64,000 nucleotides of DNA from Octopus vulgaris (taxonomy: Eukaryota): assembly GCA_951406725.2 (NCBI GenBank), contig OX597823.1, forward strand, positions 59,520,001 through 59,584,000, written 5' to 3'. Positions 1,241 to 64,000 of the stretch are shown here, piece by piece. The position numbers and the translations under genes were made by a program. Numbering within the stretch: position 1 is the stretch's first letter; the number at the start of each line of letters is the position of its first letter. Under the pieces are notes generated by a model that was given only the letters and a program-made list of their open reading frames with translations, was not told the origin of the DNA and did not search any database.

Positions 1241-2738
1241 ATTTAGTTATCTAAAATTTCTATTTAACTCTAAACTATTGAAACAACGCTGGTTGTTAAT
1301 TTGAACTCAGAGAGGTTAAAAACAAAATCAATAAACAAGATATAAAAAAACAAAATCTTTTTTTTTAAAGAACATTCTAATTTATTAAATAAATAGAAAA
1401 AACAATCATAGTGCAAGCAGAAAATAATTTTTTAAAAATACAGAAATAAATTTGTAAAACTTTAATGAAAATGAAAATAAAAGTATGTAAAAAAATAAAG
1501 AGAAATACAATACCTCCTCAGAAAGAATTTTAATTCTTTCAAGTTCTAGAGGACAATAAGAACTTGGAACTGTTTGGACATGACTAGAAATGATAGCTAA
1601 CTCTACATTATAGATAAAAGTGGCAGTTTTATGAAACTAAATGAGTCGTAATGTTGTGTTAAAAATAGTGATCTTTATGAAAACAATACTAAGTTCACAT
1701 TATATTGTTTTTTATTCAGGTTTTTTTTCTGACTTGATTCATTCGTTGGTTAAAAATAGAATGTTTACTAAAGATGAGGATAATAACATAAGTCAGAATG
1801 CATAATATGATATTCATGGCTTTTGTGATACTGAAAAAATACAACAACAAAAAAGCTAAAATATTCTTTAGTAATACAAAAGAAAATACAATTCTAATGT
1901 AACAATTTTTGTATTCTGGACAGAAATTATTTTTCTTCACTTTTAGCTGGTTCATATATTTATTTAAAGGACCAAAATATATATATAAGAAATCTACATA
2001 AATTCACCAATTTTAGTCATAAAAATTTTTTTTGTACCAAAAAGAAAAGAATGAAAAAAAATGTCAAGGAAAAGTCTTCGTTAATTATTTGAATATCTTT
2101 GTTTTGAAAGAAGAAAAACAGAAACTTATGATTTCCATGTAAAGAGATATTATTACAACTGCTAAAAATAGTGAAATACAAATAAGAATTTATTCAAAGT
2201 AATTATGGAAAATAATGCAGAAAGAAGAGGTAAATAAACATTTTAGATTCATAAATATAGAAACATATTTTAACATATGTGGTTTATTTCAAGTGTTTAT
2301 CTTCAAATTTCTGACTTTTTTATTTCGTTTCAAAAGTATATTCATAAGCTTAACAGCATAAAAGAAAGCTAATTATTATGCGTTAATCTTAGTCTGTCAT
2401 TATTGAAATAACCTATAACATGTGACATGTGAAGAATATATAAGTCAGAAATCATGCATGCCAATCTGTGATTAAAAGTACCTATGTAGTCTCTTAACTA
2501 GCTAGAAATAGCAGTGAAATTTCACTGGAATCATATTGTGATCTTTAGAAAGGGAAGGACGCACATTAAATGAAGTATTTTTGGATTTGATCAAAGGTTT
2601 ACATGATCGGAGTTGATATGAAATTAAACAAAGAACATAAACCATAAATACAGTTCTATATTTAAGGGATGAAGAATTATGTGCATTATTTACATTATTT
2701 ACATTCAACAGATATTTGTCCTCATCTTGTTTGTTGTT

Positions 2739-2784
2739 AACACAACGTTTCAGCTGATATACTCTCCAGCTGTCTTCAGGTATT
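2739..2784 (-). ncRNA. Minimal hammerhead ribozyme motif (PLE-type)
   Basis: Minus strand: aatac CTGAAGA c agctg gagagtatat cagct GAAAC GTT gtgtt; stem I aatac/gtgtt, stem II agctg/cagct, stem III reduced to palindrome AACGTT. Confidence 0.7.
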
Positions 2785-2989
2785 CTTGGGAAATTTCAAA
2801 CCTGGGTTCTCATTCCTAAGATATTTTTCAATGTTATTATTATTATTATCATCATTATCATTATTATTATTGTTCAGGTCCCGTGGGCATATGGTGTAGT
2901 GGTTAAGAGCACGGGCTACTAACCCCAAGATTCTGAGTTTGATTCCAAGCAGTGACCTGAATAATAATAATAATAATAATGATAATAAC

Positions 2990-3036
<47 letters not shown>

Positions 3037-3095
3037 CAACAGCAACATCGAAAAATACCTTAGGAATGAGAGAGCCCAGGTTCGAAATTTCCCCA

Positions 3096-3136
3096 AGATA
3101 CCTGAGGAAGGCTTGAGGTTATATCAGCTGAAACGT
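3096..3136 (+). ncRNA. Hammerhead motif, second arm; homology stops at GAAACGT
   Basis: agatac CTGAGGA aggcttgaggttatatcagct GAAAC GT, after which the sequence diverges from the left arm. Confidence 0.55.
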
Positions 3137-3139
3137 CTC

Positions 3140-3600
3140 TCACTAAATGAAACTCTAGGGGGAGCTGAACAGCAGAAGGTCTTCAGAGAATAATTCCCTT
3201 CTCCACACACTCATGAAAGTATCTCAACCCTTAACATCTTACTCTCCAAGGGAATATGGCCAGGCTGCACCCATACCATGACTCTTGGATAATTCTCTGC
3301 TGCAAAGTCTGTGCTAACTATTTGAAAAAGTATTTCTTTGAGTAGTATCAGAGCTGTGATCTCTCAGTTCGAAGCAGTAGTGGATCTACTCTCTGATCAC
3401 AGAGCTATGCACACTCTATTGAGTACTGTTACTTCAAAGACGGTCTTACTTAGTGATCCAGCCAAGGCAACTGGAGATGGCTGCTTCTGACAGGACTTGA
3501 TGGAAGGTGTGCATATGAACTCTGCCTCCCATCCCTCTTGGGAATATGCAAGTGAAGAAGATGAGATGAGATTTTCTTAGTGACCCTATTTGGAATGAAA
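3140..3600 (+). mobile_element. Highly decayed RTE-like LINE 3' fragment
   Basis: Only a PRQLEMAASDRT*W motif resembling the RTE C-terminal 'WE..A.DR..W'; many stops. Confidence 0.3.
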
Positions 3601-7929: not shown

Positions 7930-8408
7930 TTCACCACATCATCAATTCACCACAAGATAAGTTCACCATCATCAATTCACCACAGGGAAAGTTCACTATC
8001 ATCAATTCACCACAGGGGCAGTACACCATCATCAATTCACCATAGGGAAAGTTCACCATCATCAGTTAACCACAGAGAAAGTTCACCATCATCAATTTAC
8101 CACAAGGAATGTTCACCATTATCAATTGAATGCTGGGAAGTTCACCATCATCAATTCACCACAGCGAAAGTTCACTATCATCAATTCACTGCCAGGAAAG
8201 TTCACCACAGAGAAAGTTCACCAATTCACTACAGGGAAAGTTCACCATCATCAATTCACTTCCAGGAAAGTTCACCATCATCAATTCACCACTGGGTAAG
8301 TTCACCATCATCAATTCACCACAGGAAAAGTTCATCATCAATTCACTGCCAGGACAGTTCACCATCATCAATCCACCACAGGGAAAATTCACCATCATCA
8401 GTTCACTG
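7930..8408. repeat. ~30-bp minisatellite, roughly 15 degenerate units (catcatcaattcaccacagggaaagttcac)
   Basis: Tandem units visible; produces the 10-aa periodic ORFs (INSPQGKFTI). Confidence 0.9.
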
Positions 8409-11582: not shown

Positions 11583-11759
11583 TTTGATATATATATGTAT
11601 ATAATTTGAAACTGACTTGAAAATTGGAAGTCCACCTGAAGATTGTCGATCAGGACAAGAAACAATTGTAGTGGCGGTTTTTTTGACTTTTTATTAAAAT
11701 TTTATGTATTGATTAAGTCTTTCCTTGTTTGTTTTGCAAAATAGTGGTTTTGTCTCTAA

Positions 11760-11803: not shown

Positions 11804-12358
11804 ATAATACATGTAAATAAATTAGAGAAGACCCATCATGAAGCAATTCAACAATGATATACTTAAATCATACCATATAGAAAAAAATTAAAGACACGAT
11901 AAAACACACAACACAACAGAACACAATAAAACATTTACCTAAAACTAAAGTACTAAATACTAAATAGTATATAATTAGTAAATAGACTACACGTGTTTCG
12001 TGGTTATATTTTCAAATTGATAGCAATAAAATCAATTTAATTTAGATATAGTCACTCATCAGGTCTAAGATTAAAACAATAAAATAATTCAAATAATTAA
12101 ATAAATGTACGTATTATTATCTTATAAGAAAAGATAAATATATATAAAAATACGTAATTTTACAATAAAAAATTGAACAAAATTTTTCGCGTCTTTAATT
12201 TTTTTCTATATGGTATGATTTAAATATATCATTGTTGAATTGCTTCATGGTGGTTCTTCTCTAATTTATATACATGTATTATATATTGTGAAATTTGATT
12301 TAGTATTACTAAATGGAATTTTTCCCTGTAAGTTTGGAATCATATTCCCTAATATGAT
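11804..12358 (-). mobile_element. Non-coding PLE-like element with HHR and inverted 3' arm, between (TA)n tracts
   Basis: 11804-11899 is the reverse complement of 12187-12282; the right arm continues ~75 nt to (TA)n; HHR at 11983-12067. Confidence 0.8.
11983..12067 (-). ncRNA. Type I minimal hammerhead ribozyme
   Basis: Minus strand: tagac CTGATGA gtgactatat...aaattgatt..atcaattt...atataaccac GAAAC acgt GTA gtcta; stem I tagac/gtcta, long stem II, palindromic ACACGTGT. Confidence 0.85.
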
Positions 12359-15132: not shown

Positions 15133-17506
15133 TGATTGATTGATTGATTGATTCTAGTTTCAACTTATGAGCTGTGGCCATGCTGGGGCACCGCCATTTG
15201 GTGTTGCTACTTGGTTTCACTTCATGGAGGCTTTCTAGCAACTGCTATTTGGTGCATGAGAGAGTTCGATGCAGCTGCCCTCATCTGCCCCTCCTGCCGT
15301 GAAGTTGGTTCATCTGGGACACCTGACAGGAAGAGATCCAGCTTCATTTTAAAGACATCTGTATCCACCCCATGCAGGTCTCTCAGGTTCTTCGGGAGGA
15401 TATTGAAGAGCTGTGGGCCTCGGAAGCCCAGGCTATCACAGAGTCTTGTCCTACATCTTGATGGCAGGTTTGGAGTCCTAGGCACCACGCAGTGGCGCCC
15501 AGTTCTGGCATTTGCATAACTCTCGATGCCAAAGTTCAGGACACTTCCCTCCAGGATCTTCCAGATGTATATTATGGCATATCTTTCCCGCCTACGCTCC
15601 AGGGAATATAATTTTAATCTCTTGAGTCTTTCCCAGTAGCTTACATTCTGCATAGAGGCTATCTTCTTTGTGTAGCTTCGTTGGATCGCCTCAAGTTCTG
15701 TGATCAACTTGACACTGGATGGTGACCATAGCTGAGAGCAATAGTCAAAGTGGCTTAGGACAAGTGTCTTCCAGAGGACCGTCATGGTTTCTTGTTCTCT
15801 TGTTCTAAAGGTTCTAAGAATCCATCCAGCCAGCCGTCTACATTTCATTGTCAGTTTAGCAACATGTACATGAAAGGTCGCGTCATCACTCATGTGAATA
15901 CCCAGGTCACGCACTGATTGTGCCTCTGGGATTGCAATCCCTCCGGGTCCAGTGTATTCATTGGGTATTGCATTCAGTTTTGCATGCTGATAGTATAAAG
16001 CTTGAAACTTTCCAGCATTGAACTGCATGCTATTCTTTTCAGCCCACTTGTATATTTCGTCCAGCTCACATTGCAGGTGTTTAGTGTCCTCAGGGTTCTG
16101 TATTGCCTGTGAAACTTTTGTATCATCTGCATAACTTGTGATCGTGGATCTCTGCGTGGCTGAGGGCATGTCTGAGAGGGCCATTATGAACAGTAGTGGT
16201 CCCAAAACAGTGCCCTGTGGAACACCGCTCACTATTTGCGTGCTAATGGAAGTGGCCCCATTGGCTACTACCACCTGACTTCTATTCTTCAGAAAGTCAT
16301 GAAGCCATTCTCCTAGTTTTCCAACTATGCCAAGATCACGCAGTTTGTGACATATCATTCCATGATCGACTTTATCGAAGGCCTTTGCGAAGTCGAGATA
16401 TATGACTTCAACATTTGAGTGGTTGAGCAGTTGTTTCAGCACCCAGTCATAGTGCTGAAGGAGCTGAGTTAAGCAGCTTCTTCCTGGTCGGAAACCATGT
16501 TGGGTGTCAGGCAGCAAGTCATTTTCTTCAAGGAAGGTGATTAGTTTCCTTCTGACTATTCGTTCCATGACCTTGCTGATGTGTGAGGTCAGAGAGATAG
16601 GTCTGTAATTCTTGGCCTCCGCTCTGCTACCTCCTTTATGAATAGGGCATATTTTACCTTCCTTCAGTCCCCTTGGAAGTTTGCCAGCTGCAAGGAAGCT
16701 CTGAAAGAGGAACTGCAGTGGTCTTGCTAAGACTCTCTTACATACTTTTAGGAGGATTGCCGGGAATCCATCGGGGCCAATAGCTGAGTCTATTTTCATT
16801 TCATCTATAGCCTTTATTACATCGTCTTCCTTTATATCGATGTAATTTATCGTCGCCGCCTCTGATTCTATATCTGCAGTGGTAAAGAAGTCAGTTGGAT
16901 TGCTGATTTGGAAATGCCCAAGGGGTGGAGTGAAAACACTCTTGAATTGTTCATTCAGTATTTCACTTACCCTCATTGGTTTTCCTGTGAGTGTGCCATC
17001 CTTTTCAAGGAGTGGCCCTATCCTACAGTGCACCGTAGCTGTTTCTTTGGCATACCTGTAGAAAGCTCTGGGGTTAGTTTTTATGTTGTCTATAGCCCAG
17101 GCTTCTTTGTCTGCTCTTTCCTTCTCATGGGAGAGTTGCAGACAATTTTCAATTTCCAACAGTTTTATTTTCAGGCGGGACTTTTCACTGCTTTCAATTT
17201 GTTTGTTTAGGCGATTTGAAATTTTTGTACGCCGTCATAAACACACCATTATCAGTTGTCAAGCAATAGTTTCCAGTTTGCCTTATTGAAGTTCAAGCTG
17301 GAAAGATTCTGAGGGTTTCTTGTAGGCTGCATGTCCGTGCTCTCTTTTGGCCCGTACATGGTCAGAACAGAGATCCAGTGTGTTACCTGCTCTGGTTGGT
17401 TGCAGTATTACTTGCTCCATGTACAGGGTGTTGGTGAGGTTCAGGAGGGACCTCGCCTGTCCACGTTCACATCTTGTCATTCCTGGGAGAGAAAGGCCCT
17501 CGGGCC
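15133..17506 (-). mobile_element. 5'-truncated CR1-group LINE with (AATC)n tail
   Basis: (TGAT)n at 15133-15152; RT ORF; C-terminal endonuclease-region pieces at 17271-17506 (QPTRAGNTLDLC, LNFNKANWK); acacagacacaaa.aa.aaacatata repeated on both flanks as a TSD-like sequence. Confidence 0.9.
15222..17159 (-). CDS. LINE reverse transcriptase (CR1 group), open 645-aa C-terminal part of ORF2
   Basis: Motifs GPDG, NYRPISLTS, QHGFRPGRSC, YLDFAKAFDKVDH, GVPQGTVLGPLLF, YADDTK, RDLGI, LEAIQR..TK, SLERRR. Confidence 0.92.
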   Translation of the reverse strand: MEIENCLQLSHEKERADKEAWAIDNIKTNPRAFYRYAKETATVHCRIGPLLEKDGTLTGKPMRVSEILNEQFKSVFTPPLGHFQISNPTDFFTTADIESEAATINYIDIKEDDVIKAIDEMKIDSAIGPDGFPAILLKVCKRVLARPLQFLFQSFLAAGKLPRGLKEGKICPIHKGGSRAEAKNYRPISLTSHISKVMERIVRRKLITFLEENDLLPDTQHGFRPGRSCLTQLLQHYDWVLKQLLNHSNVEVIYLDFAKAFDKVDHGMICHKLRDLGIVGKLGEWLHDFLKNRSQVVVANGATSISTQIVSGVPQGTVLGPLLFIMALSDMPSATQRSTITSYADDTKVSQAIQNPEDTKHLQCELDEIYKWAEKNSMQFNAGKFQALYYQHAKLNAIPNEYTGPGGIAIPEAQSVRDLGIHMSDDATFHVHVAKLTMKCRRLAGWILRTFRTREQETMTVLWKTLVLSHFDYCSQLWSPSSVKLITELEAIQRSYTKKIASMQNVSYWERLKRLKLYSLERRRERYAIIYIWKILEGSVLNFGIESYANARTGRHCVVPRTPNLPSRCRTRLCDSLGFRGPQLFNILPKNLRDLHGVDTDVFKMKLDLFLSGVPDEPTSRQEGQMRAAASNSLMHQIAVARKPP

Positions 17507-23573: not shown

Positions 23574-23777
23574 GCTTAAAGGCAAGGCAAACATCTCAAG
23601 TCATATACATAATTATTACTATTGGAAAAAATATGAAGTTTTACAGCTGTTTCTGGGATATCCCAGAGAATGAGAAATCTCAGAAATAGCTGTAAGACTT
23701 TGAATTTTTTCCAATAATATTAATGTATATGACTTGAGATGTTTGCCTTGCCTTTAAGCAATTGGGGAATAGGCTTG

Positions 23778-23831: not shown

Positions 23832-24340
23832 TTTAATGAGAATGGATCAGCTCTGGAAAAGAAATGAACCAGACAACCAAGAAGTGCTCATACTCCACAG
23901 AATATCAAGGCTCTATGTGCTTCACTCCTACAGAGCCCGTGGCACTCTGATTATAACTAAACAGCTGCAGTAAGGTTGTCCCAAGAGAACATTCACCAAA
24001 TTCTCCATTTTGACTGAAAATTTCATCCAAACAAGTCGCAGATCAGGCAAGAACTGAAGAAGAATGGTCACCAATTGCAATTAGAATTCTGTCAAAAAAA
24101 TTATGAAAAATATAAATGAAAACAACAAATTTCTGAACAAGCTGTGGATGTCAGTTGAGGCCCAATTTCATCTCACAGGTTATGTGGACAAGCAGAATTA
24201 TCATCAGTGTGAAGACAACAAACCTAAAGAATTTCATGAAAGCCCCTTACACAGCAGCATGGTGATAATATGGTGTGCAGTTTCATCACATGGGGTCATC
24301 GGCCTTACTTGTCATCTACAGGGCATAATTTTCAGATATT
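23830..24340 (+). mobile_element. Tc1/mariner-superfamily transposase remnant
   Basis: WMSVEAQFHLTGYVDKQN..., E.PLHS..V.IWCAVSSHGVIG (first catalytic D region, mutated). Confidence 0.7.
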
Positions 24341-24344
24341 AATA

Positions 24345-24647
24345 ATTTGACTTTATTTACATTTGATGGATGTTTGTCTTCAGCTTGTCTGTTGTTAACA
24401 CAATGTTTCAGCTGATATACCTTCCAGCCTTCATCAGGTTTCTTGGGTGAAATTTCGAACCTGGGTTCTCATTTCTAAGGAATTTTTCGATGTTATTATT
24501 ACTATTATTATTCAGGTCACTGCCTGGAATCAACCTCAGAATCTTGGGGTTAGTAGCCTGTGCTCTTAACCACTACACCATATATCCATCAAATGTAAAT
24601 AAAATAAATAATGTACATAATTCCTCATCTCTTAAATATAGAACTGT
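24345..24647 (-). mobile_element. Second copy of the tRNA-headed HHR SINE-like element, with short inverted 3' tail
   Basis: tRNA-like head 24514-24583 (-), short (AAT)n, body, HHR; 24582-24647 is the family 3' end in the opposite orientation. Confidence 0.8.
24397..24442 (-). ncRNA. Minimal hammerhead ribozyme motif
   Basis: Minus strand: gaaac CTGATGA a ggctg gaaggtatat cagct GAAAC ATT gtgtt (canonical CUGAUGA core; GTT changed to ATT). Confidence 0.65.
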
Positions 24648-26005
24648 GTTAATAATTTACATTACTGATTCTTAAAAGGCAAGTTGTTTAATTTCTGTCA
24701 ATAATTTTTTTTTTTTGCTGGATTGGGAATTTTTTCTATGTTTCAGTTTTTTTCTTTACAATAGTATTTAAGAGAAATGGGCAGCCCTTGATTAACTGCA
24801 TTATGTATAGTATTTTATTTGACGAAGTAGTTGTTTAACCAAGGATAGACATAATGGAACATGCATATGCTGGAAGCCATTCTATCCATACCAATGATAT
24901 GGACAAATTTAATTTAACCAAGAATTTGAATAAATTAAATTAAATTAAGTTCAAATCTTACCAGAGTGGTTTTACCTCGTCTTCTTCAACGAAATAATAA
25001 ATGTACAGGCTATGAAATGAGGTCAGTTTTCTTGGTTACTGTTCTTTTATAAGAAACAAAAAAAAAATGTATTAACTTCTGACTGAGTTAAAGTAAATTT
25101 TATGTCACAGAATTATAAAACGACTTTACAAAATATTTAAATAATTCAAATCAGACATGCAATAAATTTCTTGTTTTTCCACTTTCTTAAAATTTTAAGT
25201 GTGCTGTATGATTCACATAATACATATTTTTTTCTCCAAATATGCATACATTTTTGTATTGGTTTTCTTTTTGAAAACTACTGCTACTGTTTTAACGATA
25301 ATGAATTCATGACAATTAGGGGTAAAATATTTCTGCTTAAACACACACACACACACATATATATGCATGCATAAATATCTTACATATATATATGTACACA
25401 CATATATATATATATATGTATGTACGTATATATATATATATATATATATATCTTATATTTATTATATATATGTATACACACATATGTATACATTTTAAAA
25501 CTGATTTTAGAAAAGTTTAATTTTCTTTATAAAAGAAATCTTTTAAAGCACAATTAGTAAATGCCCAAGTGGTTAACAACAAAAAAAGAAAAATGGAAAT
25601 GAGAGAAGAAAACTAAACAGCGTTTGGCATATATAATTTGCATCTTATTATTTACCAATAAAAATAATTCAAAATGAAGACAAAAAAAATGCACAAGAAT
25701 TGTATTTTGAATTTCTGTTGGTCTGATTTTTGTTCATCATCATCATTATTGCTATTATTATTATCATTATCATTATTGCTATTATTATTATTATTATTAT
25801 TATTATCATCATTATTATTATTATTATTATTATTATTTTATTTTGTACTTTATTTTATTCTTTGCATTTCACATTTTAAAACTTTAATCGAACAGATTAA
25901 ATAACCATTTAGACATGTACATAAAATTGTGTGGTAAGATGAAGGGCAAGGAAGTGTGTGTGTGTATGTGTAGTTGTATGTATATATCAAGTATGTATAT
26001 ATAGT

Positions 26006-33734: not shown

Positions 33735-34439
33735 ACATATTAAAATTCTATATTGTAATCCAATTTTCATAAATCAATTTAAAACTGCAATTTCTATAAA
33801 TAAAATCGAATCTACTTATTTTCAAAAAAATGCAAAAATAGCCAATGCATCCACTGTAAGGAAGGAGGAGCCACCTGCCCTTGTTAGGGTAAAGTTAGTT
33901 TGTTAGTTAAAATTCATGTAAAATACAAATAAATCCTGCAATTCAGCTACCGTTCTTGTCAACTTGCCTGAAAATAAAATAATCTGAATCCTGCAACTCT
34001 GAAAATGCAATCATACTATCTGAAAGCAAAAACCTTGTCAATTCACCCTAGGAAATAATAATCTAAATTCTGTTACTCTTAACATTAAATTAAAGTTTAA
34101 AAGCAAACAAAAAAACTTATTAAAACTTCAGAAGTTTTTACAACTTTGGTCGTCGTAAGGCTTTGCTTTCATTTGTTAAATAAAAATTCCTCATCGTATA
34201 ATGATTTTGCTTTCATTTTGTGAGAGACAGCTATCATGCAGAAAATGTCAGCTTCTAAATCCTGTTTTCTGATTAGGTGAAAATTATTAAACTTTAAACC
34301 TCAGTAACATTTTTCTGCAATAAGTACGTACGTATGTATGTCTATCTATGTATGTTTATGTGTCTGTGTGTGAGTGTTTATTTACGTTGGGCAGCAGAAA
34401 AGAGTATTGTAGATAATATAAGTAAATTCCCCCTCATCT

Positions 34440-34985
34440 TAGTCTTGATGTCTCAATGTACACAACGGAACCAGCACACTCACTCGGCGGTAAACCTATT
34501 GACTGACTGCATAATAGCGTCCGACATCCAATGCTTCGGACTTACTGCAGCTGATATGCATCAACTTTTGTCCATCATCGTGGACAACGCATACTCCTCT
34601 TTCCAGGACCACATATACAAACTGACAACAGGTCTCCCCATGGGATCCAGTCTCTCGGGCCTACTAGCCATCACTTAGATGAACCATCTGGAACGTCGAG
34701 CACTCAACATCTGCCGCTCATGCGCCTTCTTCACCAGATACGCCGATGACATCTTCCTATTCACATCCTCCCGTGAAGAGGCTGACAGAATATTCACGAC
34801 GTTCAATAACATGGACATGAACATAAAGTTCACTATAGAACACCCCGACATCACTGGATCACTATCATTACTTGACTTCAAACTGAATATAACGGAAGAA
34901 GGGGAGATCCATACCGAGTTCTACAGTAGAGATATGTTTGTCCAGTACAATTCAGCACTTCTACCCGGTGCTAAAATAGGATACG
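34440..34985 (+). pseudogene. Penelope-like element reverse transcriptase remnant
   Basis: FQDHIYKLTTGLPMGSSLSGLLA, RYADDIF, FNNMDMNIKFTIEH, SLSLLDFKL, VQYNSA: PLE RT signature; one in-frame stop. Confidence 0.88.
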
Positions 34986-34988
34986 CGG

Positions 34989-35370
34989 ATCTTTTCCTTT
35001 TGAACAGCAGTTTTCAACACAAGTTCTAGTTAACTAAACACTTTTAAACTTGGTATACTGATAGAATGTGTCAAAATAAAACATTTTTTTCTCTTGGCTT
35101 TCTTGAGAAAATTGTAATTTAAAAGTTTAACGTAATTCAATTTTTCGAATTTTAACCAATAATTGGCCTCTATTGAGATAAAATCATTTGCTGCGTCTAA
35201 AACTGAGACAACATCCTGTCACTAACCCTAACCCTAAATTTTAGCCTTTCATTTTTTTTTCGTAATTGTTATCCTTAAATTAATTTAATAATTAAGAAAA
35301 AAAAACGAAAGCAAAAACTAAAAAACAAAACGAATAATTTTAGACACATGCGTAACAATTAAATTAATTT
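34989..35370 (+). mobile_element. Non-autonomous element (Helitron-like 5' A|TC start) inserted into the PLE; contains ctaaccctaaccctaa
   Basis: Related copy at 36511-36760 (atcttttcc.tttga..., taactaaacactt..aaactt.g, aaccaat). Confidence 0.5.
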
Positions 35371-35371
35371 A

Positions 35372-35975
35372 ACAAGACCGTTACACGTCCGCATCAGAGA
35401 ATATCTGAACACGAGAGCTTCCTCCTTCAGAAAACATCTAGAGAGATGCCGGAACACCGACAAAAGCATAACAGTCGCAATTAAGGCCATTAAAAGAAAT
35501 GTGGGTAATTTAAGAATTAAGGAAGCTATACTCATACACAGACTAGGGCCCCAAATTAACAACAGGCTGGAGGATGGTAATCAATACATTACTTAGATAC
35601 ATCTGGATGCGTGTAAGTTCATTTTTGATAATATGCTTATCTGTAGCTTATAAAAAAAAAAGATGGGGAACAAAAAAGGAAGCTGCACGTATAATACGTA
35701 ACTTAGAAGCAGCGCTACGGATGTACCAGCACACACGAAATTGAGACATGGCCGACCTCACACACTTCTTATGAGGAATTCCGGAAGGAGCATCGTGAGG
35801 CCTCTGCGGAGACGTTTCCAAAAAAAAAAAAAAAAAACTGTTGGAAAACCGATTAAAGCAGCGACTCCATCTAAGATTATCTGAAGAAGGAATATTATTC
35901 CGAAATATCATATCAGACTATGGATGACTAAATTACAACAGGTATATAGCCCAATGTCTGTCTTATAGTGCATTG
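35372..35975 (+). mobile_element. PLE GIY-YIG endonuclease C-terminal remnant and 3' region
   Basis: TRPLHVRIREY...RKHL..C..., LRIKEAILIHRLGPQIN (R..E, E, N catalytic motifs); degenerate HHR core at 35881-35915. Confidence 0.75.
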
Positions 35976-35980
35976 TTGTG

Positions 35981-36300
35981 TGAGGGCGCGTGGCTTAGTG
36001 GTTAGGGCACTCGGCTCATGATCGTAATGTTGTGAGTTCGATTCCCGGCGACGCGTTGTGTCCTTGAGCAAGACACTTTATTTCACGTTGCTCCAGTCCA
36101 CTCAGCTGGCAAAAATGAGTTGTACTTGTATTTCAAAGGGTCAGCCTTGTCACTCTCTGTGTCACGCTGATTATCCCCGAGAACTACGTTAAGGGTACAC
36201 GTGTCTGTGGAATGCTCAGCCATTTGCACGTTAATTTCACGAGCAAGCTGTTCCGTTGATCGTATCAGCTGGGACCCTCGTCGTCGTAACCGGCGGAGTC
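35981..36300 (+). mobile_element. tRNA-derived SINE family C
   Basis: gagggcgcgtggcttagtggttagg..gagttcgattcc..gtgtccttgagcaagacacttta; relatives at 59848-60105, 60658-60890 and 22085-22205 (-). Confidence 0.85.
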
Positions 36301-37437
36301 TTTTTTTTTTTAAAGTGCATTGTTGTACCATTCAAACTTTTTATTTTTATTTTTTTCAATTATTTTTATTTTCTTAACCGTCTTTTAGTATCTACCTCTT
36401 AAAATATCCTTCTACAAGTTTAACTACATTCTGTAATATTACACTTATTTTCTTCTATTAAAATTAGATATATTTTTTACATAAAACATTTTAATTAAAA
36501 ATTTTATGGAATCTTTTCCCTTTGATCGAGAAATTTTTGTAACTAAACACTTTCAAACTTCGGACATTGGTAGAGTGTGTCATATAAAATATCTTTTACT
36601 CTTAGTGTTGTTGAGAAAAGTTTATATTTACAAAGTTATTTCGTGTTAAAGTAGTCGTATTTCGGTAATCTCAACCAATCAATAACGTGTATTCAGCTGA
36701 ATAAAATTACTGCCGTTGTTTGTCAACAACTATCGGCGGTGTATATTTCGTTTTTACTTCATATACAGGAGTTTTAAATTAACTCCTTTATATTAATCTA
36801 TAGAGAGAATGTTACCCTTATTAGTAATATATATGTCAACATCCAAGCGTTATCCCTTAGTCTTGTTTTAAATAGCCATGACTCCAAGAACAATAACACA
36901 TTACAAAAATGAGTAAGAACACCATATCTATGTAATCCTAACATCTTTTTAGCTTTTTGCTTATTTTCGGCTACGACGAGTACTTTTTGGCAACTCAGAT
37001 TGTTAAAATAAATTTATTGTCTTTCTATATGAAACGATTGTATAGCTACACGAATAAAAAGAAATCTTCATTCATATTAACATTTAATCTCCGCCATTTA
37101 TATAAAATATAATTGAATTTGTTAAACTTTGTTTCATAAGTTAAATCATATACTTAATATACCTTATATAACTTTTCATATCTACGCTAGTTTACACTAG
37201 TAAAGTAAAATATGAAGAAACAACGTTATAAATATTTTGGAAACTATTCCAAAAGGACGAATTAGCATTCATATATATATATGTATATATATATATTTAT
37301 ATATATATATATAAATTTTATTTCGTAATCAGATAAAAAACCAAGAGTGTGTAGATATCAGAACATTTATAGATAGGTCTTATAGCTGTCTCAATGACAC
37401 CATTACCTCTTATAGCCTATAATTATATATATATATA

Positions 37438-37772
37438 CACTGTTGTGTCTGGGGAGAGTCATTCTGTTTTAGTGCCTTATAATTATCACATTCACCGGTT
37501 AAAATTTCCATTGATTTACTTACTTATTTTTCTAAAATTTTCGTTGCGTCTTCCAACCTTTTCGATAGTTATTGAGCGTCAACAACTATTGAAAATGCTG
37601 CAAGACGCAACGAAAATTTTAGAAAAATAAATAAGGAAATGAGTGCAAATTTTACAGGTGAGTGTGTTAAATTATAAGGTACTAAAAGAGAATGGCTCTC
37701 CCTAGAAACAACAGAATATGCTTCATCACATGAACGCACATAAAGAATCTTACGAACCAAATCCCAAAACGA
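37438..37772. mobile_element. Fold-back element within (TA)n; arms ~130 bp, right arm extended to the family 3' end
   Basis: 37440-37570 inverted versus 37584-37714; same family and same terminus (aaatcccaaaacga-TA) at 62022-62203. Confidence 0.75.
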
Positions 37773-38000
37773 TATATATATATATATATTTAATGAAATG
37801 GATAAATGAATTATCTTGTTACGGATTATTCAAAATTTAACCGATACCTGTGTAGCAAAAATCACACCAGAAAAGACACGGTTGAGGTTACGACCATGGG
37901 GTTTCGCCCCCGTGCTTTAGCGCGGATAATTGAAGTTTTATATATTTAGTGAAGGGAAGAAATGGAGCCGAACGAAGATTCTACAAAATTCCTTTTTATT

Positions 38001-38086
38001 ATTTTCTACGCATGTTTCAAAGGCTGCAAATTCCCAAATTCGGATTGAATAAGGAGACCATTCTGCAGCTTTCTCTTCAGGAAAAT
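38001..38086 (-). ncRNA. Type I hammerhead ribozyme in pLTR
   Basis: attttc CTGAAGA gaaagctgcaga...tttgcagccttt GAAAC atgc GTA gaaaat; stem I attttc/gaaaat. Confidence 0.85.
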
Positions 38087-38711
38087 CCAGGAATTTAAAA
38101 TCTCAAAACAAATGCGCAGCAAGCTTTTCGAACAAAACGCTCCCTAGGAGCCCATGGTAAAAATGGCACAAAACTGTCTCTCAATATGCGCTGACGTCAG
38201 AGTGGGTGAAGGACGACGAAAAATCCGTTGGAATAGACCTAGGTCAAACCACGGTCAAATCAGGTAGGGGAAGAATCACAGAAAACCCAAAGAGTGTGAA
38301 TATATTCTGTATAACTAGTGTTAATGTTCAAATTGTCTTAAGAATGACAGTTATCTTATTTGGGTGTGAGGAACTACCTACATGTATGTGTGTGTGTATG
38401 CGCCTATGTATGTGTGGCAGTATGTTAGGAAGCAGCTAGAGAGAAAATATATTGTTTGTAGGCATTGCTGGTCAAGCGGCTGATAAAATTCTGTGTCTGT
38501 GTGTTCGTCTATGACCAGTTTATATACAGATGACTTGTCAAAAAACAGGGGAGTATAATCCCTGATATTGTTTCTAAAAAAAGTAGCAGAACATACGCTA
38601 AAAGGGGAGTCATTTCCCCTTTCAAATTTAATTCAAAATTTTTTCCAAATTTCTTCCAAACAATTTTTTTTTCCTTTTCTTATGACATCAAGGTGTTAAT
38701 TATCTTAGGCT

Positions 38712-39494
38712 TCAATTGTATGCAAGAAATGTCAGTCGCCTCCAGTGGGGACATCTGAAAGAGTGTTGCAAAATCCCGCTCACTAGCTGCCCTCGGGCGA
38801 ACAAAATGTGAAAAAGTTCAGAGTTACAGAGATTACAGATTCTTTTGCCCCTATCAAACGGTACAGCCACCGATAAAATCGACCATTCCAGTCTAAATGC
38901 TGAATTCGCGTTCTTCAAACGCCAGATTAATTTACTTAGTCCGGTAGCGTGTTGTTTTCTAAAATCGCGAAAAGTTGTGAAGTGGTTCGATATTCTCACG
39001 GCCAATTTTGATGATGACGCTCCGATATACGAGTAGACATCCGATCCAGTATAAACTCTGCATTGGTAAATGGCATTTCTAATCTTGGAATTACTAGATA
39101 AGAATCTTATTCTATTGGGATTGGCTTCCGATATTAACACGGCGTTCTTATTACTATTATGATTGTGAGAACTACGGCTGTCTTCGACATTATACACCCC
39201 ATTATCAATACTATTTAATGGAATATCACCTATATATTCCCTGCCACTGAGATCGCTGTGATTGCTAATGTCCGTGATGCTACTGTTGTCAAACCCGTTG
39301 CTAAAATTGTTATTGGGACTCTCTACATTAATGACTCGGACAGTGCTCTCATCCCTATTCCCATTACTAACGTTAGAGTCGTCACCATTGCTCCTATCAT
39401 TATTCCTATTATTAACTCCATGCCTGGTATGGAGATTGCTAATCTCTGTGCCGGTTCTATTACCATTATTCTTATTTTTATTAATACTGCGCAT
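38712..39494 (-). pseudogene. PLE C-terminal GIY-YIG endonuclease preceded by an Asn/Ser-rich linker
   Basis: AIYQCRV...SYIGAS...RISNH...H..ATGLSKLIW.LK...WSIL...CNLCNSE...CPH; frameshift upstream separates it from the RT remnant. Confidence 0.85.
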
Positions 39495-40049
39495 TATTCT
39501 GGCATTAGACGGAGCTGCGTCTCCGAACGTGGGTAAGAGGGTCTTGTTTAGCAGCTTATTGTTATGGGAGGAAATTATCTGAGAGATTTTTCGTATTAGA
39601 GAAGGCTATCCTAACTTTGTGTGAGTTAACAGTGGCGTAATATCTGGAATTTCTGGGAAAGTTACTGGCAATAGCTTGGCGAAACTGCAGGGGTAGATTA
39701 GATCTTATTTGTTTACCAAAGGGAATTTCAAACCAAATATATTTATTCCTGTTTTTGTACTGGGTCGGGGAGTCAACTCTGACATTAAGGTGGGTGTTTC
39801 TAGGTTGAATAATAGGTTTTGGCTTACTATGGTCTCACTAGTTATACAGAATATATTCACACTCTTTGGGTTTTCTGTGGTTCTTCCCCTACCTGATTTG
39901 ACCGTGGTTTGACCTAGGTTTATTCCAACGGATTTTTTCGTCGGCCTTCACCCACTCTGACGTCAGCGCATATTGAGAGACATTTTTACTAGGGAGCGTT
40001 TTGTTCGAAAAGCTTGCTGCGCATTTGTTTTGAGATTTTAAATTCCTGG

Positions 40050-40135
40050 ATTTTCCTGAAGAGAAAGCTGCAGAATGGTCTCCTTATTCAATCCGAATTT
40101 GGGAATTTGCAGCCTTTGAAACATGTGTAGAAAAT
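40050..40135 (+). ncRNA. Type I hammerhead ribozyme in inverted pLTR
   Basis: attttc CTGAAGA gaaagctgcag...tgcagccttt GAAAC atgt GTA gaaaat. Confidence 0.85.
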
Positions 40136-40183
40136 AATAAAAAGGAATTTTGTAGAATCTTCGTTCGGCTCCATTTCTTCCCT

Positions 40184-40231
<48 letters not shown>

Positions 40232-46243: not shown

Positions 46244-46458
46244 TATATATACACACATATATACAGCAGGCAGTTTGTCTACCAAATAGACTCTCAAGGC
46301 TTTCATTAGCCTGGGTTTATTTAAGAGACTTTCCCAAGGTATAACACAATGGAACTGGACTGAAAACCGTATGGTTGGGAAGCAAACTTTTTAACAATAC
46401 AGCCACTCCTGCATCTCTCTTTTTCTCTCTCTACATGCATGTATATTATATATATATA

Positions 46459-47285
46459 TATCAATAATATAGGGTGAAATTAATTAATTTAGAAATAATC
46501 ATTAATTTCACCAAGTAGAGTTCGGCATGTAAAAGACCCATTCAAGGAAGGTTTAAGTAATACTAATTAATTAAGGGTTTTACTGGGATCCCCCTTTTAA
46601 GTAGAAAGAATAGCCAAAACTTTTTGACTGCTATTTCTAAATTCGGTGTGTGGTGAGGCAAATCATTGCTGAACCCTTAATTAATTAGTATTACTTAAAC
46701 CTTCCTTGAATGGGTCTTTTACATGCCGAACTCTACTTGGTGAAATTAATGATTATTTCTAAATTAATTAATTTCACCCTATATTATTGATAATTGTATT
46801 TCATCCCAGTAAAAAAACCGTAGCATCTTATTTTGGCAGCACGCTGGCGGAAGTGGGGAGGTGATTTACTTTCATTCACCCTTTGAATTCGGTGGTACTG
46901 GTAAGGCTTACGCTCACTCTAATACCATGAGTTGAGGTGATGTCTTCTAGTGCCTTCAAATTTAATACACAATTATTAATAATTGAGACGCAATTATTTA
47001 TAATTGAAGAGTCCTACGCTGAGGAGGAAAGTAGTCAGGTAAGACATAATTACTTAATTTTTATGCTCTACAATGACTTGATTCCGAAACGTACGTCCGT
47101 AGGTAACTTAATATAGAATGATTTCCGTCATTTCTTTCTCTTTTGCCTGCGTCGTTTGTTTTTTAAGTGCTTTGGTTTTACTGGGATCCCCCTTTTAAGT
47201 AGAAAGAATAGCCAAAACTTTTTGACTGCTATTTCTAAATTCGGTGTGTGGTGAGGCAAATCGTTGCTGAACCCTTAATTAATTA

Positions 47286-47289
<4 letters not shown>
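46459..47289 (+). mobile_element. Non-coding retrozyme/PLE-like element: ~598-bp unit with 116-bp terminal direct repeat and ~120-bp inverted 5' arm, within (TA)n
   Basis: 46576-46691 matches 47174-47289 (one mismatch seen); 46459-46579 is the reverse complement of 46672-46792; HHR at 47013-47103; no ORF of 60 aa or more. Confidence 0.88.
47013..47103 (+). ncRNA. Type I hammerhead ribozyme
   Basis: cctacg CTGAGGA ggaa.gtagtca...tgacttgattcc GAAAC gtac GTC cgtagg; perfect 6-bp stem I, GUC triplet, palindromic ACGTACGT. Confidence 0.9.
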
Positions 47290-47360
<71 letters not shown>

Positions 47361-47432
47361 TGAGTTTCTTTTAGAAATTTCATCACCACTGGCCTAGCAT
47401 ATATAAAACGTCAATAGACAACATATTCTCGA

Positions 47433-47681
47433 TATAAAATAGTATACATTGAAACACAAGAGAAGCTGCCTTCAACAGACAACTTTACATGCTAGAAGAA
47501 GTAGTCAAAACGAAATTGAAATCTAGGTATGACCGTAATAAAATAACAAGTTAAAAGTTTTTATTTGTCATTCCCTTCAAAATTGCTTTTAAATGTGGTT
47601 TTGACCATTTTGACTACTTCTTCTAGCGTGTAAAGCTACCTGTTGAAGGCAACTTCTCTTGTGTTTATACACTATTTTATA
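47433..47681. repeat. Inverted repeat (~70-bp arms, ~100-bp spacer)
   Basis: aaacacaagagaagctgccttcaacag...agaagaagtagtcaaaa versus ttttgactacttcttctag...ctgttgaaggcaacttctcttgtgttt. Confidence 0.75.
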
Positions 47682-48764
47682 TATATAATACAGAAGATAG
47701 ATAGATGAACATACATATTTTTAATTAATTAGTTGTTTTAGTATCGATTCATCTGAAACTCTACTTTATTCTTAGTGGTTAATCATCAAAGAAAATGCTC
47801 CTCCGGCAATATTGTATGAAACGTTTTAAGTGTCTTATAAGTTCTTATGAAAGATTCAGTCATTAAGAAGTTATCGAAAATGAAAGTGAGCTGTAAATGA
47901 TAGCTGAAAATTTGAAATGTGTTTTTGTGTCTCTGCCTGTATGATATATGTTTAAATAATTTATTGTCTGACACCAAACTGTTGCATTATGTAGCCTTGA
48001 TGATATGTTCCATACTGGCAACAAAATTAAAGCCAGCATCACTAATATCATACTAATAATTGCATTAAATGATTATATCTGATTGGTACAAATTGGATAT
48101 ATTTGTTAGATATATTTGGAAACTGCACAGCCCTTTAACTGAGAGGACAAACCTTTCAGCATCATTTTCCCAAAGTTCTGATTTCCACAAAGTTAACAGA
48201 TTTTGCATTATATTTATTGGTATTCCTGAAAGAGTTAGTCATTGAGTTGGTTTGTGTAACTCCCGGCTCCAGAATGGTTTCACCCAAAACCCTTCAATGT
48301 GCAACTGATTTAAACTCTCCAAGCTAAAATTCATGACAACAAACTAAAATTTCTGGTGTGCATCTATTACACTTTTCCCAAATCATATTTATTTTCCAAA
48401 CACCTTGTGTATAATTCTAATTTTGGTTGTCTTAAATGTATGTGAATCTTTGTCTATGATAATTAACTTTCAAAGAGAGAATATAGACTTCAGTTTTGTG
48501 TTTTAGATGTCTCTAGATAGTCAATATTCCATTTAATGCATTGTGGGGTTTTCTCTTTTTGCCAAAACAAATTTCATCTCTGCAAAATTGATATCCCTCA
48601 CGAACAAGAAAAAAGTTTTGAAGACCATCAACTTTCATTTGAACATTCAAGTAGATTAACTCAACACAATATTTTGCGGCAAGCCATAGCTCTCAACGTT
48701 TTCATTCTGTTCACCACACAATATACCAATTACCATTCTTTCATCACAACTAATAAACTATGAA

Positions 48765-49430: not shown

Positions 49431-49687
49431 TTTGTCACCACTTCAACATGGTTGTTCTGTAGGAACCGATGTTACTACCATTTTTTTACCCCGAGAGGAC
49501 GCCTCCCTGAGCTGGTTATGCAGCAATCTACATGCAATATATATTGCAAGAAGAGTTTGCTCTCTTGCTTGCAATCTATATAAGGTGCAGATTGCATTGA
49601 ATAACCAGCTGGAGACGGCGTCCTCTTGGGGTTAAAATGGTAGTAACATCAGTTCCTCTGGAACAGCCATGTTGAAGTGGCAACAAA
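49431..49687. mobile_element. ~257-bp whole-length palindrome (fold-back MITE)
   Basis: ccacttcaacatggttgttc...gatgttactaccatttt versus aaaatggtagtaacatc...gaacagccatgttgaagtgg; pairing continues towards the centre. Confidence 0.8.
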
Positions 49688-63149: not shown

Positions 63150-63663
63150 AAAGGAAAGGAAAATAGAAAAAGAGCAAATATGAAGCCATCAGTTTACGCT
63201 ATTTTCCTATGCTATAACGTCTGACATTATACCTACATTAATATGTATACATATCTATGTACATACATACATACACACACACATACATACATACAAACAT
63301 ACATACATACATACACACATACATACATACTTACATACACACATGCATACATACATACATACATACATACATACATACATACATACAGAGAGACAGAGAG
63401 AGAGAGACAAGAAGACAGAAACACACAGACACACACAAGAACATGTGCTCAAACACACAAACATACTACATATATATATATGTGTGTGTATTGAATATAT
63501 GCTTAGCTTTTTTTTTACCTCTGATGAGATTCTACTTAATAATGATTTGATTATTTCAATTAAAATCTTTAAAGTCTGAATCGAAACAGCTGTCAGGAAT
63601 TATGCCCATGTTTGCAATTTATAAGTATAATTATTTGTTTATCAATCTCTATTTTCTTATTTT

Positions 63664-63701
<38 letters not shown>

Positions 63702-63735
63702 AAAACAAGAAAATAGAGATAAACAAACAAATAAT

Positions 63736-63834
<99 letters not shown>

Positions 63835-64000
63835 ATATGTTTGTGTGTTTGAGCACATGTTCTTGTGTGTATCTGTCTGTCAGTCTCTCTGTCTCTCTGT
63901 ATGTATGTAGGTAGGTAGGTATAACGTCAGACGTTATAGTATAGGAAAACAGTGTAAACTGAAGGCTTCATATTTGCTCTTTTTTTTTTTCCTTTCCCTT
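63150..64000. repeat. Nested inverted repeats around the HHR element
   Basis: 63626-63665 / 63700-63741; 63378-63475 / 63826-63908; 63150-63236 / 63910-64000 (runs off window). Confidence 0.8.
63515..63600 (+). ncRNA. Type I minimal hammerhead ribozyme
   Basis: ttacct CTGATGA gattc...gaatc GAAAC agct GTC aggaa; stem II gattc/gaatc with extension, palindromic ACAGCTGT, GUC triplet. Confidence 0.85.

Follow-up and report, generated by a model that had tools for sequence, protein, structure and literature searches.

How is a repeat inserted that joins a tRNA-type head to a hammerhead ribozyme motif and is accompanied by an inverted copy of part of itself? Two such insertions lie in a 64,000-nt stretch of the Octopus vulgaris genome (the window), which is AT-rich, microsatellite-rich animal DNA. 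In the sense direction the element reads head, (AAT)n tract, ∼50 nt of body, hammerhead, and 94 nt to the terminus. SINEs, in the textbook view, depend on LINEs. From its sequence and insertion structure, however, the element (∼300–370 nt) is probably a non-autonomous Penelope-like retroelement (PLE) with a tRNA-derived Pol III head, that is, a SINE mobilized by a PLE and not by a LINE.

BLAST of the element arms against the window matched only two loci, with no third copy. Copy 2 (24349–24648) is flanked by exact 10-bp direct repeats that form a target-site duplication. For comparison, among position pairs drawn at random 12 of 5000 had repeats of at least 10 bp, as did 21 of 3000 that were AT-matched. 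Copy 1 (2650–3136) has no target-site duplication. The flanks of the two copies are unrelated at their boundaries, and one match (34 nt, 79%, E 0.001) lies more than 200 nt from either boundary. Thus, the copies are independent insertions and represent a dispersed family, as the original prediction had proposed for its second copy. Also borne out by BLAST is the proposal that both share the head (95.6% over 91 nt; 3 differences in 71 nt), the body, hammerhead and 3′ part (84% over 171 nt, E 4e-47) and the terminus (87% over 68 nt). The (AAT)n tracts do differ in length as described (18 nt in copy 2, 84 nt in the head-bearing arm of copy 1, 39 nt in the third arm), and so do the inversion points: the short arm of copy 1 begins with the last 6 nt of the head, and that of copy 2 ∼30 nt past the predicted cleavage site. 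The predicted locus was correct, but its start at 24345 falls inside the left duplication (24339–24348), and the lower boundary of copy 1 is 2650, not 2648. The features of both copies are collected in Table 1. Separately, we considered whether the head is more conserved than the body, and rejected this because the difference is not significant (3/71 versus 9/91, p=0.23).

Further copies were sought by three routes, each without success: a 48-aa frame from the ribozyme and tail against longer proteins, a 44-aa antisense frame of the head against 1.84 billion representatives, and two 24-nt motifs against bacterial and archaeal genome contigs, as contamination. The left flank of copy 2 (24000–24335, plus strand) resembles a Tc1/mariner transposase remnant, judged by motif and with no Pfam confirmation. 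The sequence to the right of copy 1 (3137–3560, plus strand) is GC-richer (45%), abuts the copy exactly at the predicted ribozyme cut, and resembles decayed coding or mobile sequence.

Table 1. Features of the two element copies in window coordinates.
Feature	Position	Strand	Remarks
Copy 2 left target-site duplication, TTAATAATTT	24339..24348	+	Exact 10-bp repeat at both boundaries
Copy 2 long arm, head to 3′ part, without the last 41–45 nt (tail)	24349..24583	-	Ends 53 nt past predicted cut, versus 94 in copy 1 tail-bearing arm
Copy 2 tRNA-type head	24513..24583	-	A/B-box scan and alignment with four other tRNA-SINE heads
Copy 2 A box	24580-24570	-	33-nt spacing to B box
Copy 2 B box, degenerate	24536-24526	-	
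Copy 2 (AAT)n tract, 18 nt	24495..24512	-	
Copy 2 body between tract and ribozyme	24443..24494	-	Contains second B-box-like word
Copy 2 minimal type I hammerhead motif (predicted)	24397..24442	-	Motif inference, no database match
Copy 2 hammerhead core	24437-24431	-	
Copy 2 hammerhead GAAA	24409-24406	-	
Copy 2 predicted cut	24402/24401	-	
Copy 2 hammerhead helices			Extra A after A9; helix II 6 bp; helix III block ACAT (broken); helix I 4/5 pairs
Copy 2 short arm	24584..24648	+	20 nt identical to long-arm end, then tail (~24604-24647) to common 3′ terminus
Copy 2 right target-site duplication	24649..24658	+	Exact 10-bp repeat
Copy 1 tail-bearing arm	2650..2880	-	5′-truncated at end of head; best-preserved hammerhead
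Copy 1 tail-bearing arm, hammerhead core	2779-2773	-	Helix I 5 bp; palindromic ACGT
Copy 1 head-bearing arm	2881..3136	+	Stops at U16.1, one base before predicted cleavage site
Copy 1 head-bearing arm, A box	2892-2902	+	
Copy 1 head-bearing arm, B box	2936-2946	+	
Copy 1 head-bearing arm, (AAT)n tract	2960-3043	+	
Copy 1 head-bearing arm, hammerhead core	3102-3108	+	

Relative to the consensus quoted in PMC8969392, the head contains an A box with one mismatch and, 33 nt away, a B box with two (copy 1) or three (copy 2). The same scan of 10 control sequences of 64 kb gave 2 occurrences with three or fewer mismatches and 7 with four or fewer. The head aligns almost gap-free with four other SINE heads of the window; the ordinary tRNA-SINE heads present there have equal length and box spacing, but carry neither a ribozyme nor an inverted arm. 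ARAGORN recognized no tRNA at the head, Rfam found no tRNA or hammerhead family in the whole window or, to E 10, in either copy, and the head folds no better than shuffles (z +1.05 and +0.59). The designation of the head as tRNA-derived therefore stays at the level of motifs. A TTTT terminator is absent from the element, which is uninformative given that 60% of shuffles also have none. A second B-box-like word in the body (24455–24466, minus strand; 3079–3090, plus strand) matches the consensus better than does the head's own decayed B box, and could represent either another tRNA-derived piece or an additional TFIIIC site.

The long arms begin at −11 (copy 1, whose first two bases are possibly untemplated) and −3 (copy 2) from the T of the A box. 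None of the four arms passes the head, and two stop there at points 8 nt apart. The copy 1 offset of −11 recurs in an ordinary tRNA-SINE at 35980, whose start is defined by a 13-bp duplication. The suggestion that the inversion junction lies right at the head start, marking the 5′ end of the RNA, thus holds to within 8 nt though not exactly; with n=2, an RNA 5′ end at this place is probable, and the stops are consistent with initiation by Pol III. Colinear extension upstream of the head, which would have spoken against this 5′ end, is not seen in the four arms, nor does the window contain a longer copy.

These same junctions bear on an alternative in which the unit is the 3′ end of a longer PLE that was hit by a tRNA-(AAT)n SINE, such that a Pol II transcript is copied and the long arms stop or stall at the tRNA-like segment. 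The head and (AAT)n tract together do look like a simple SINE that is complete with a tail of its own, 5′ truncation is usual in PLE copies, and the evidence consists of two junctions 8 nt apart. Nonetheless, we regard this alternative as unlikely, because two independent arms stop within 8 nt at the expected Pol III start with none of the four passing it, and neither a head-only nor a longer copy exists in the window. An origin by SINE insertion is also compatible with a Pol III-headed PLE parasite; the two explanations differ in the transcription start alone.

The hammerhead core is present in three of three arms, reading CTGATGA in copy 2 and CTGAAGA and CTGAGGA in copy 1. Minimal hammerheads of PLEs have an extra base after A9, a short helix I, a long helix II and a palindromic 15.1–16.1 block, and occur as opposite-strand pairs 100–700 bp apart (PMC4209133). 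Those motif traits recur here as an extra base after A9, a 6-bp helix II, a 5-bp helix I and a loop-less palindromic 15.1–16.1, and we predict from the motif a PLE minimal type I hammerhead. A ribozyme descriptor yields 8 matches in the window (7 with a palindromic helix III), versus 4 in 40 control sequences of 64 kb. One of the three arms of the element passes the full descriptor, the hammerhead being intact solely in the tail-bearing arm of copy 1. In copy 2, a G16.2>A change destroys the palindromic helix III block and helix I contains one mismatch. All three arms have U at 11.1, where C is conserved, possibly owing to CpG decay. Minimum-energy dimer folds did not reach the catalytic dimer form, and computation therefore gives no support for dimer activity.

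Variation had been described as falling at the tolerant position 7 of this core. A three-way alignment of 94 columns contains 6, 9 and 5 private changes, along with one tri-allelic column, which is N7. The private changes fit a star phylogeny and are consistent with an origin of the copy 1 arms from one or from different templates, but they tell little about selection because inserted copies decay neutrally. None of 11 core columns varies, compared with 20 of 82 others (Fisher p=0.058); when the helix III pair is added the counts become 1 of 13 versus 19 of 80 (p=0.17). A tri-allelic state at the pre-named N7 has p of ∼0.011, about one such column being expected somewhere in 94, and two of its three states lie in arms of one insertion. 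Three core variants thus agree with this description, but the copy 2 changes at G16.2 and in helix I contradict confinement to position 7. Likewise, free mutation of the core, at the rate of the flanks, is opposed by the column counts in a weak argument. Both the N7 column and core invariance are suggestive only.

Evidence on the mobilizing machinery comes from the inverted arms. Copy 2 comprises two head-to-head arms with their 3′ ends outward, of which one alone carries the last 41–45 nt. Its short arm duplicates 20 nt of the long arm exactly before running through these 41–45 nt to the terminus, and junction microhomology (0–2 nt) is uninformative. A head-to-head inverted copy is found at the 5′ side of both copies, and in both the tail is borne by the arm that does not reach the head. 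The arms of copy 1 overlap by ∼150–190 nt; a one-sided tail is unscorable in this copy because the long arm is cut earlier and lacks the 3′ part. Penelope inserts form head-to-head inverted repeats within duplications of 8, 9 or 10 bp, one arm carrying a tail of 31 bp (PMC3846280), and the same picture is given with a tail of 30–40 bp (PMC8557442), slightly shorter than the copy 2 tail. PLE tails equal the distance between two internal RT start sites, and nicking and extension take place on both strands of AT-rich DNA (PMC11167929). The inversion, one-sided tail and 10-bp duplication together thus constitute a PLE signature that likely names the mobilizing machinery. The original prediction of an “HHR-SINE” was right about the inversion and missed this match.

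Four of six features of non-autonomous PLEs are present: inverted arms, a one-sided tail (copy 2), a target-site duplication (copy 2 only) and a minimal hammerhead near the 3′ end. Neither copy contains a direct repeat or partial tandem (pLTR) of the element, a feature that is optional in individual PLE copies; pLTRs have been reported to act in trans (PMC3846280). Among the other six hammerhead loci of the window, inverted arms occur at four (11804–12282, 37939–40197, 46452–46799 and 63438–63863) and are absent from those at 11636 and 35881. An inverted self-copy adjoins both ribozyme-bearing tRNA heads, versus 0 of 12 ordinary heads in the window (1/91), a contrast that is not blind because both copies were noticed through their inversions. 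The 12 ordinary heads reach at most 7 exact inverted bases, and more than 18 are reached at 0 of 400 random positions. Among the 14 heads tested, the one at 219 is close to the window edge. When the contrast is made by BLAST, copy 1 is found (91 nt, E 3e-24) and the short arm of copy 2 is missed.

L1 twin priming on one RNA can also yield inversions. By this route an ordinary tRNA-SINE carrying a passenger hammerhead, much as in SM-alpha, would have been mobilized by a LINE. Copy 2 taken alone fits twin priming, with its short 3′ piece, inverted 5′ piece, 20-nt overlap and duplication, and SM-alpha is a precedent for joining Pol III transcription to a hammerhead. However, the 3′ tail is neither poly(A) nor a simple repeat and ends in a defined, non-repetitive terminus, the arm overlap in copy 1 is excessive for simple twin priming, no ordinary SINE head in the window is inverted, and the ribozyme is of the PLE minimal type instead of the canonical one. 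We therefore consider LINE mobilization distinctly unlikely. In addition, BLAST found no LINE in the window that matches the element. Of the attributes of SINE2 elements, A and B boxes 33 nt apart near the 5′ end are present, and a LINE-like or simple-repeat 3′ tail is absent.

The inverted structures might instead have arisen at the DNA level, through fold-back repair, a MITE-like element or segmental duplication. Several symmetric MITE-like palindromes do occur in the window, and the rise in GC content at the right flank of copy 1 suggests a later rearrangement. Conversely, the arms are unequal and differ between the copies, the flanks are unrelated, and the 3′ terminus is common to both. 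Because the duplication flanks the whole two-arm unit, copy 2 was inserted in one event. This largely refutes an origin without retrotransposition, which we judge very improbable. In copy 1, the head-bearing arm falls one base short of the predicted cut, the next base being C, and may record a cleaved template. GC content rises from 28% to 45% across copy 1 and no duplication is present, so that a later deletion is equally likely.

Returning to a PLE-mobilized SINE, we propose the following pathway. Pol III would start ∼11 nt upstream of the A box and read the head, (AAT)n tract, body, hammerhead and 3′ part; its promoter being internal, the element could be transcribed from one copy alone, without a tandem neighbor. 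By analogy with PAc biochemistry, an RT/GIY-YIG protein of the Penelope/Poseidon or Neptune type would bind the 3′ region of this RNA, introduce nicks 10 nt apart in the two strands of AT-rich DNA, and start cDNA synthesis from each nick at one of two sites ∼40 nt apart. The cDNA from the outer site would be cut short, and that from the inner site would run off the RNA 5′ end. Head-to-head joining of the two cDNAs would account for the observed inverted insertion, one-armed tail and 10-bp duplication. The minimal hammerhead might have been inherited with the 3′ region of the partner, cleaving only as a dimer and being dispensable for insertion; ribozyme cleavage is dispensable for PLEs in vitro (PMC11167929).

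The partner is probably of the Penelope/Poseidon or Neptune type, because the loop-less helix III matches that of the PLE remnant at 35881 and not the longer helix III of Hydra-clade elements in (TA)n. The Hydra-1_Obim ribozyme, too, differs from that of the element. Searches for the partner itself gave no match. Local alignment of the element 3′ half with the six other hammerhead loci of the window was no better than with shuffles, and the terminal motif does not appear in the PLE consensus set in the PMC8557442 supplement. Protein searches with the 48-aa ribozyme-tail frame and with an ORF at 38.7 kb, as well as a PDB search, yielded no match.

The EN+ PLEs (Penelope/Poseidon and Neptune; for example Adineta vaga Pen2a and Anolis PAc) share with the element the inverted arms, one-arm tail and 8–10-bp duplication (PMC3846280, PMC11167929, PMC8557442), and also the AT-rich target and minimal hammerhead near the 3′ end. 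The element, by comparison, is ∼300 nt, lacks an ORF and a direct tandem, and has a tRNA-type Pol III head in place of the pLTR Pol II promoter. Schistosoma SM-alpha and Sj-alpha are likewise short and non-coding, with a Pol III promoter followed by a type I hammerhead (reviewed in PMC6765202). SM-alpha, however, has a canonical active hammerhead and tandem repeats that are cut into monomers (PMC6765202), whereas the element has a PLE minimal motif with no loop between 15.2 and 16.2, dispersed copies, a PLE-type inverted insertion and a defined 3′ end that lies 94 nt beyond the cut. A SINE whose head is followed by a ribozyme would be truncated (PMC5786205), an outcome that a dimer-dependent motif may avoid.

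Metazoan non-LTR retrozymes are also short, non-coding and equipped with a type I hammerhead, and have been proposed to depend on PLEs (PMC7229834; bioRxiv 10.64898/2026.07.22.740005); PMC7761336 also treats them as non-autonomous PLE derivatives. They form head-to-tail tandems and, in the parts of these sources consulted, have no recognized promoter, whereas the element has a tRNA head and no tandem in the window. Nonautonomous Chlamys elements such as MRC1 are again short, non-coding and proposed to be PLE-dependent (PMC8557442). A parallel in promoter capture is offered by the TRIMp3 elements Cassandra, Helenus and Ajax, which are non-autonomous, stand outside the LINE/SINE pair and acquired the Pol III promoter of a small RNA, probably when a SINE inserted into them (PMC10886601). 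Those are LTR elements with PBS/PPT and 4–5-bp duplications (PMC10886601); the octopus element would be their PLE counterpart. The separate parts, namely Pol III with a hammerhead, non-autonomous PLEs, and Pol III capture by LTR elements, are thus known.

The octopus tRNA-derived SINEs named OK, OR1 and OR2 are a further point of comparison. The sections consulted of four octopus repeat papers (PMC13282606, PMC9115989, PMC6962438, PMC3531059) mention no such element, and our literature search found no description of a tRNA-headed PLE-type element; Repbase and Dfam lay outside that search. These and other repeat libraries may already contain the sequence, probably as a SINE or Penelope fragment. 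That it represents an abundant octopod family and the first recognized PLE-mobilized SINE, in which a tRNA Pol III head is joined to a PLE 3′ region and each copy is transcription-competent, is a tentative proposal that we hold at slightly less than an even chance.

If true, a PLE-dependent parasite with a Pol III head would complete the set beside the LINE and LTR types (Cassandra, Helenus). It would also alter the reading of the “unclassified SINEs” of octopus: of 900 SINE families with recent activity in O. vulgaris, 893 are unclassified (PMC13282606). Self-priming on an antisense template has been proposed for inverted PLE insertions (PMC3846280). A short element with a defined sense-strand 5′ end would make both the origin of PLE inversions and the role of the hammerhead testable by copy statistics: run-off at the Pol III start speaks for copying of a sense template, and arms that stop at the cut site would favor cleavage in vivo. 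With the RNA 5′ end fixed and 3′ starts at two sites, thousands of copies would then record PLE dimer priming and head-to-head joining, and the copy 1 arm stopping at the cut would demonstrate that RNA cleaved by the ribozyme sometimes serves as template.

Other mobile sequences in the window were noted in passing. A young PLE insertion (37790–40197, minus strand) lies between (TA)n tracts, with inverted arms 96–99% identical over ∼365 nt, each containing a hammerhead with a very long helix II (40056, plus; 38080, minus); the sense arm seems to extend ∼150 nt beyond the inverted arm. Its ORF remnant (38712–39605) resembles by eye the Hydra-clade endonuclease of Hydra-1_Obim as given in the PMC8557442 supplement. 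Adjoining another (TA)n tract is a non-coding insertion of ∼840 nt (46452–47289, plus) that combines inverted arms of 128 nt (98%) with a direct repeat of 116 nt (99%) and carries a long-helix-II hammerhead at 47019; it is probably a young non-autonomous PLE with a full pLTR and inverted structure. Two short AT-rich inserts also have long-helix-II hammerhead motifs: 11804–12282 (minus; inverted arms 100 nt at 94%, motif at 12062) and 63438–63863 (plus; inverted arms 32 nt at 97%, motif at 63521). An isolated hammerhead-like motif with a palindromic helix III lies at 11636–11680 (plus), with no inverted arm.

At 34298–35970 (plus) is a broken PLE with an RT fragment (weak Pfam RVT_1, E 0.00088), a C-terminus that is GIY-YIG-like by eye, for which Pfam gave no confirmation, and the minimal hammerhead at 35881; it is interrupted by the tRNA-SINE of 35980–36313 with its 13-bp duplication. 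Symmetric MITE-like palindromes of 190–280 nt, with arms 72–85% identical, occur at 23574–23759, 37440–37714, 47424–47690 and 49431–49687. An uninterrupted LINE RT frame of 670 codons spans 15222–17234 (minus), with the LINE ORF at 15225–17231; its closest relative is 88% identical, and the best named one, an Argonauta hians protein, 58%. Finally, a 30-bp tandem array of 15.5 copies with open frames (7937–8406) is possibly a coding repeat.
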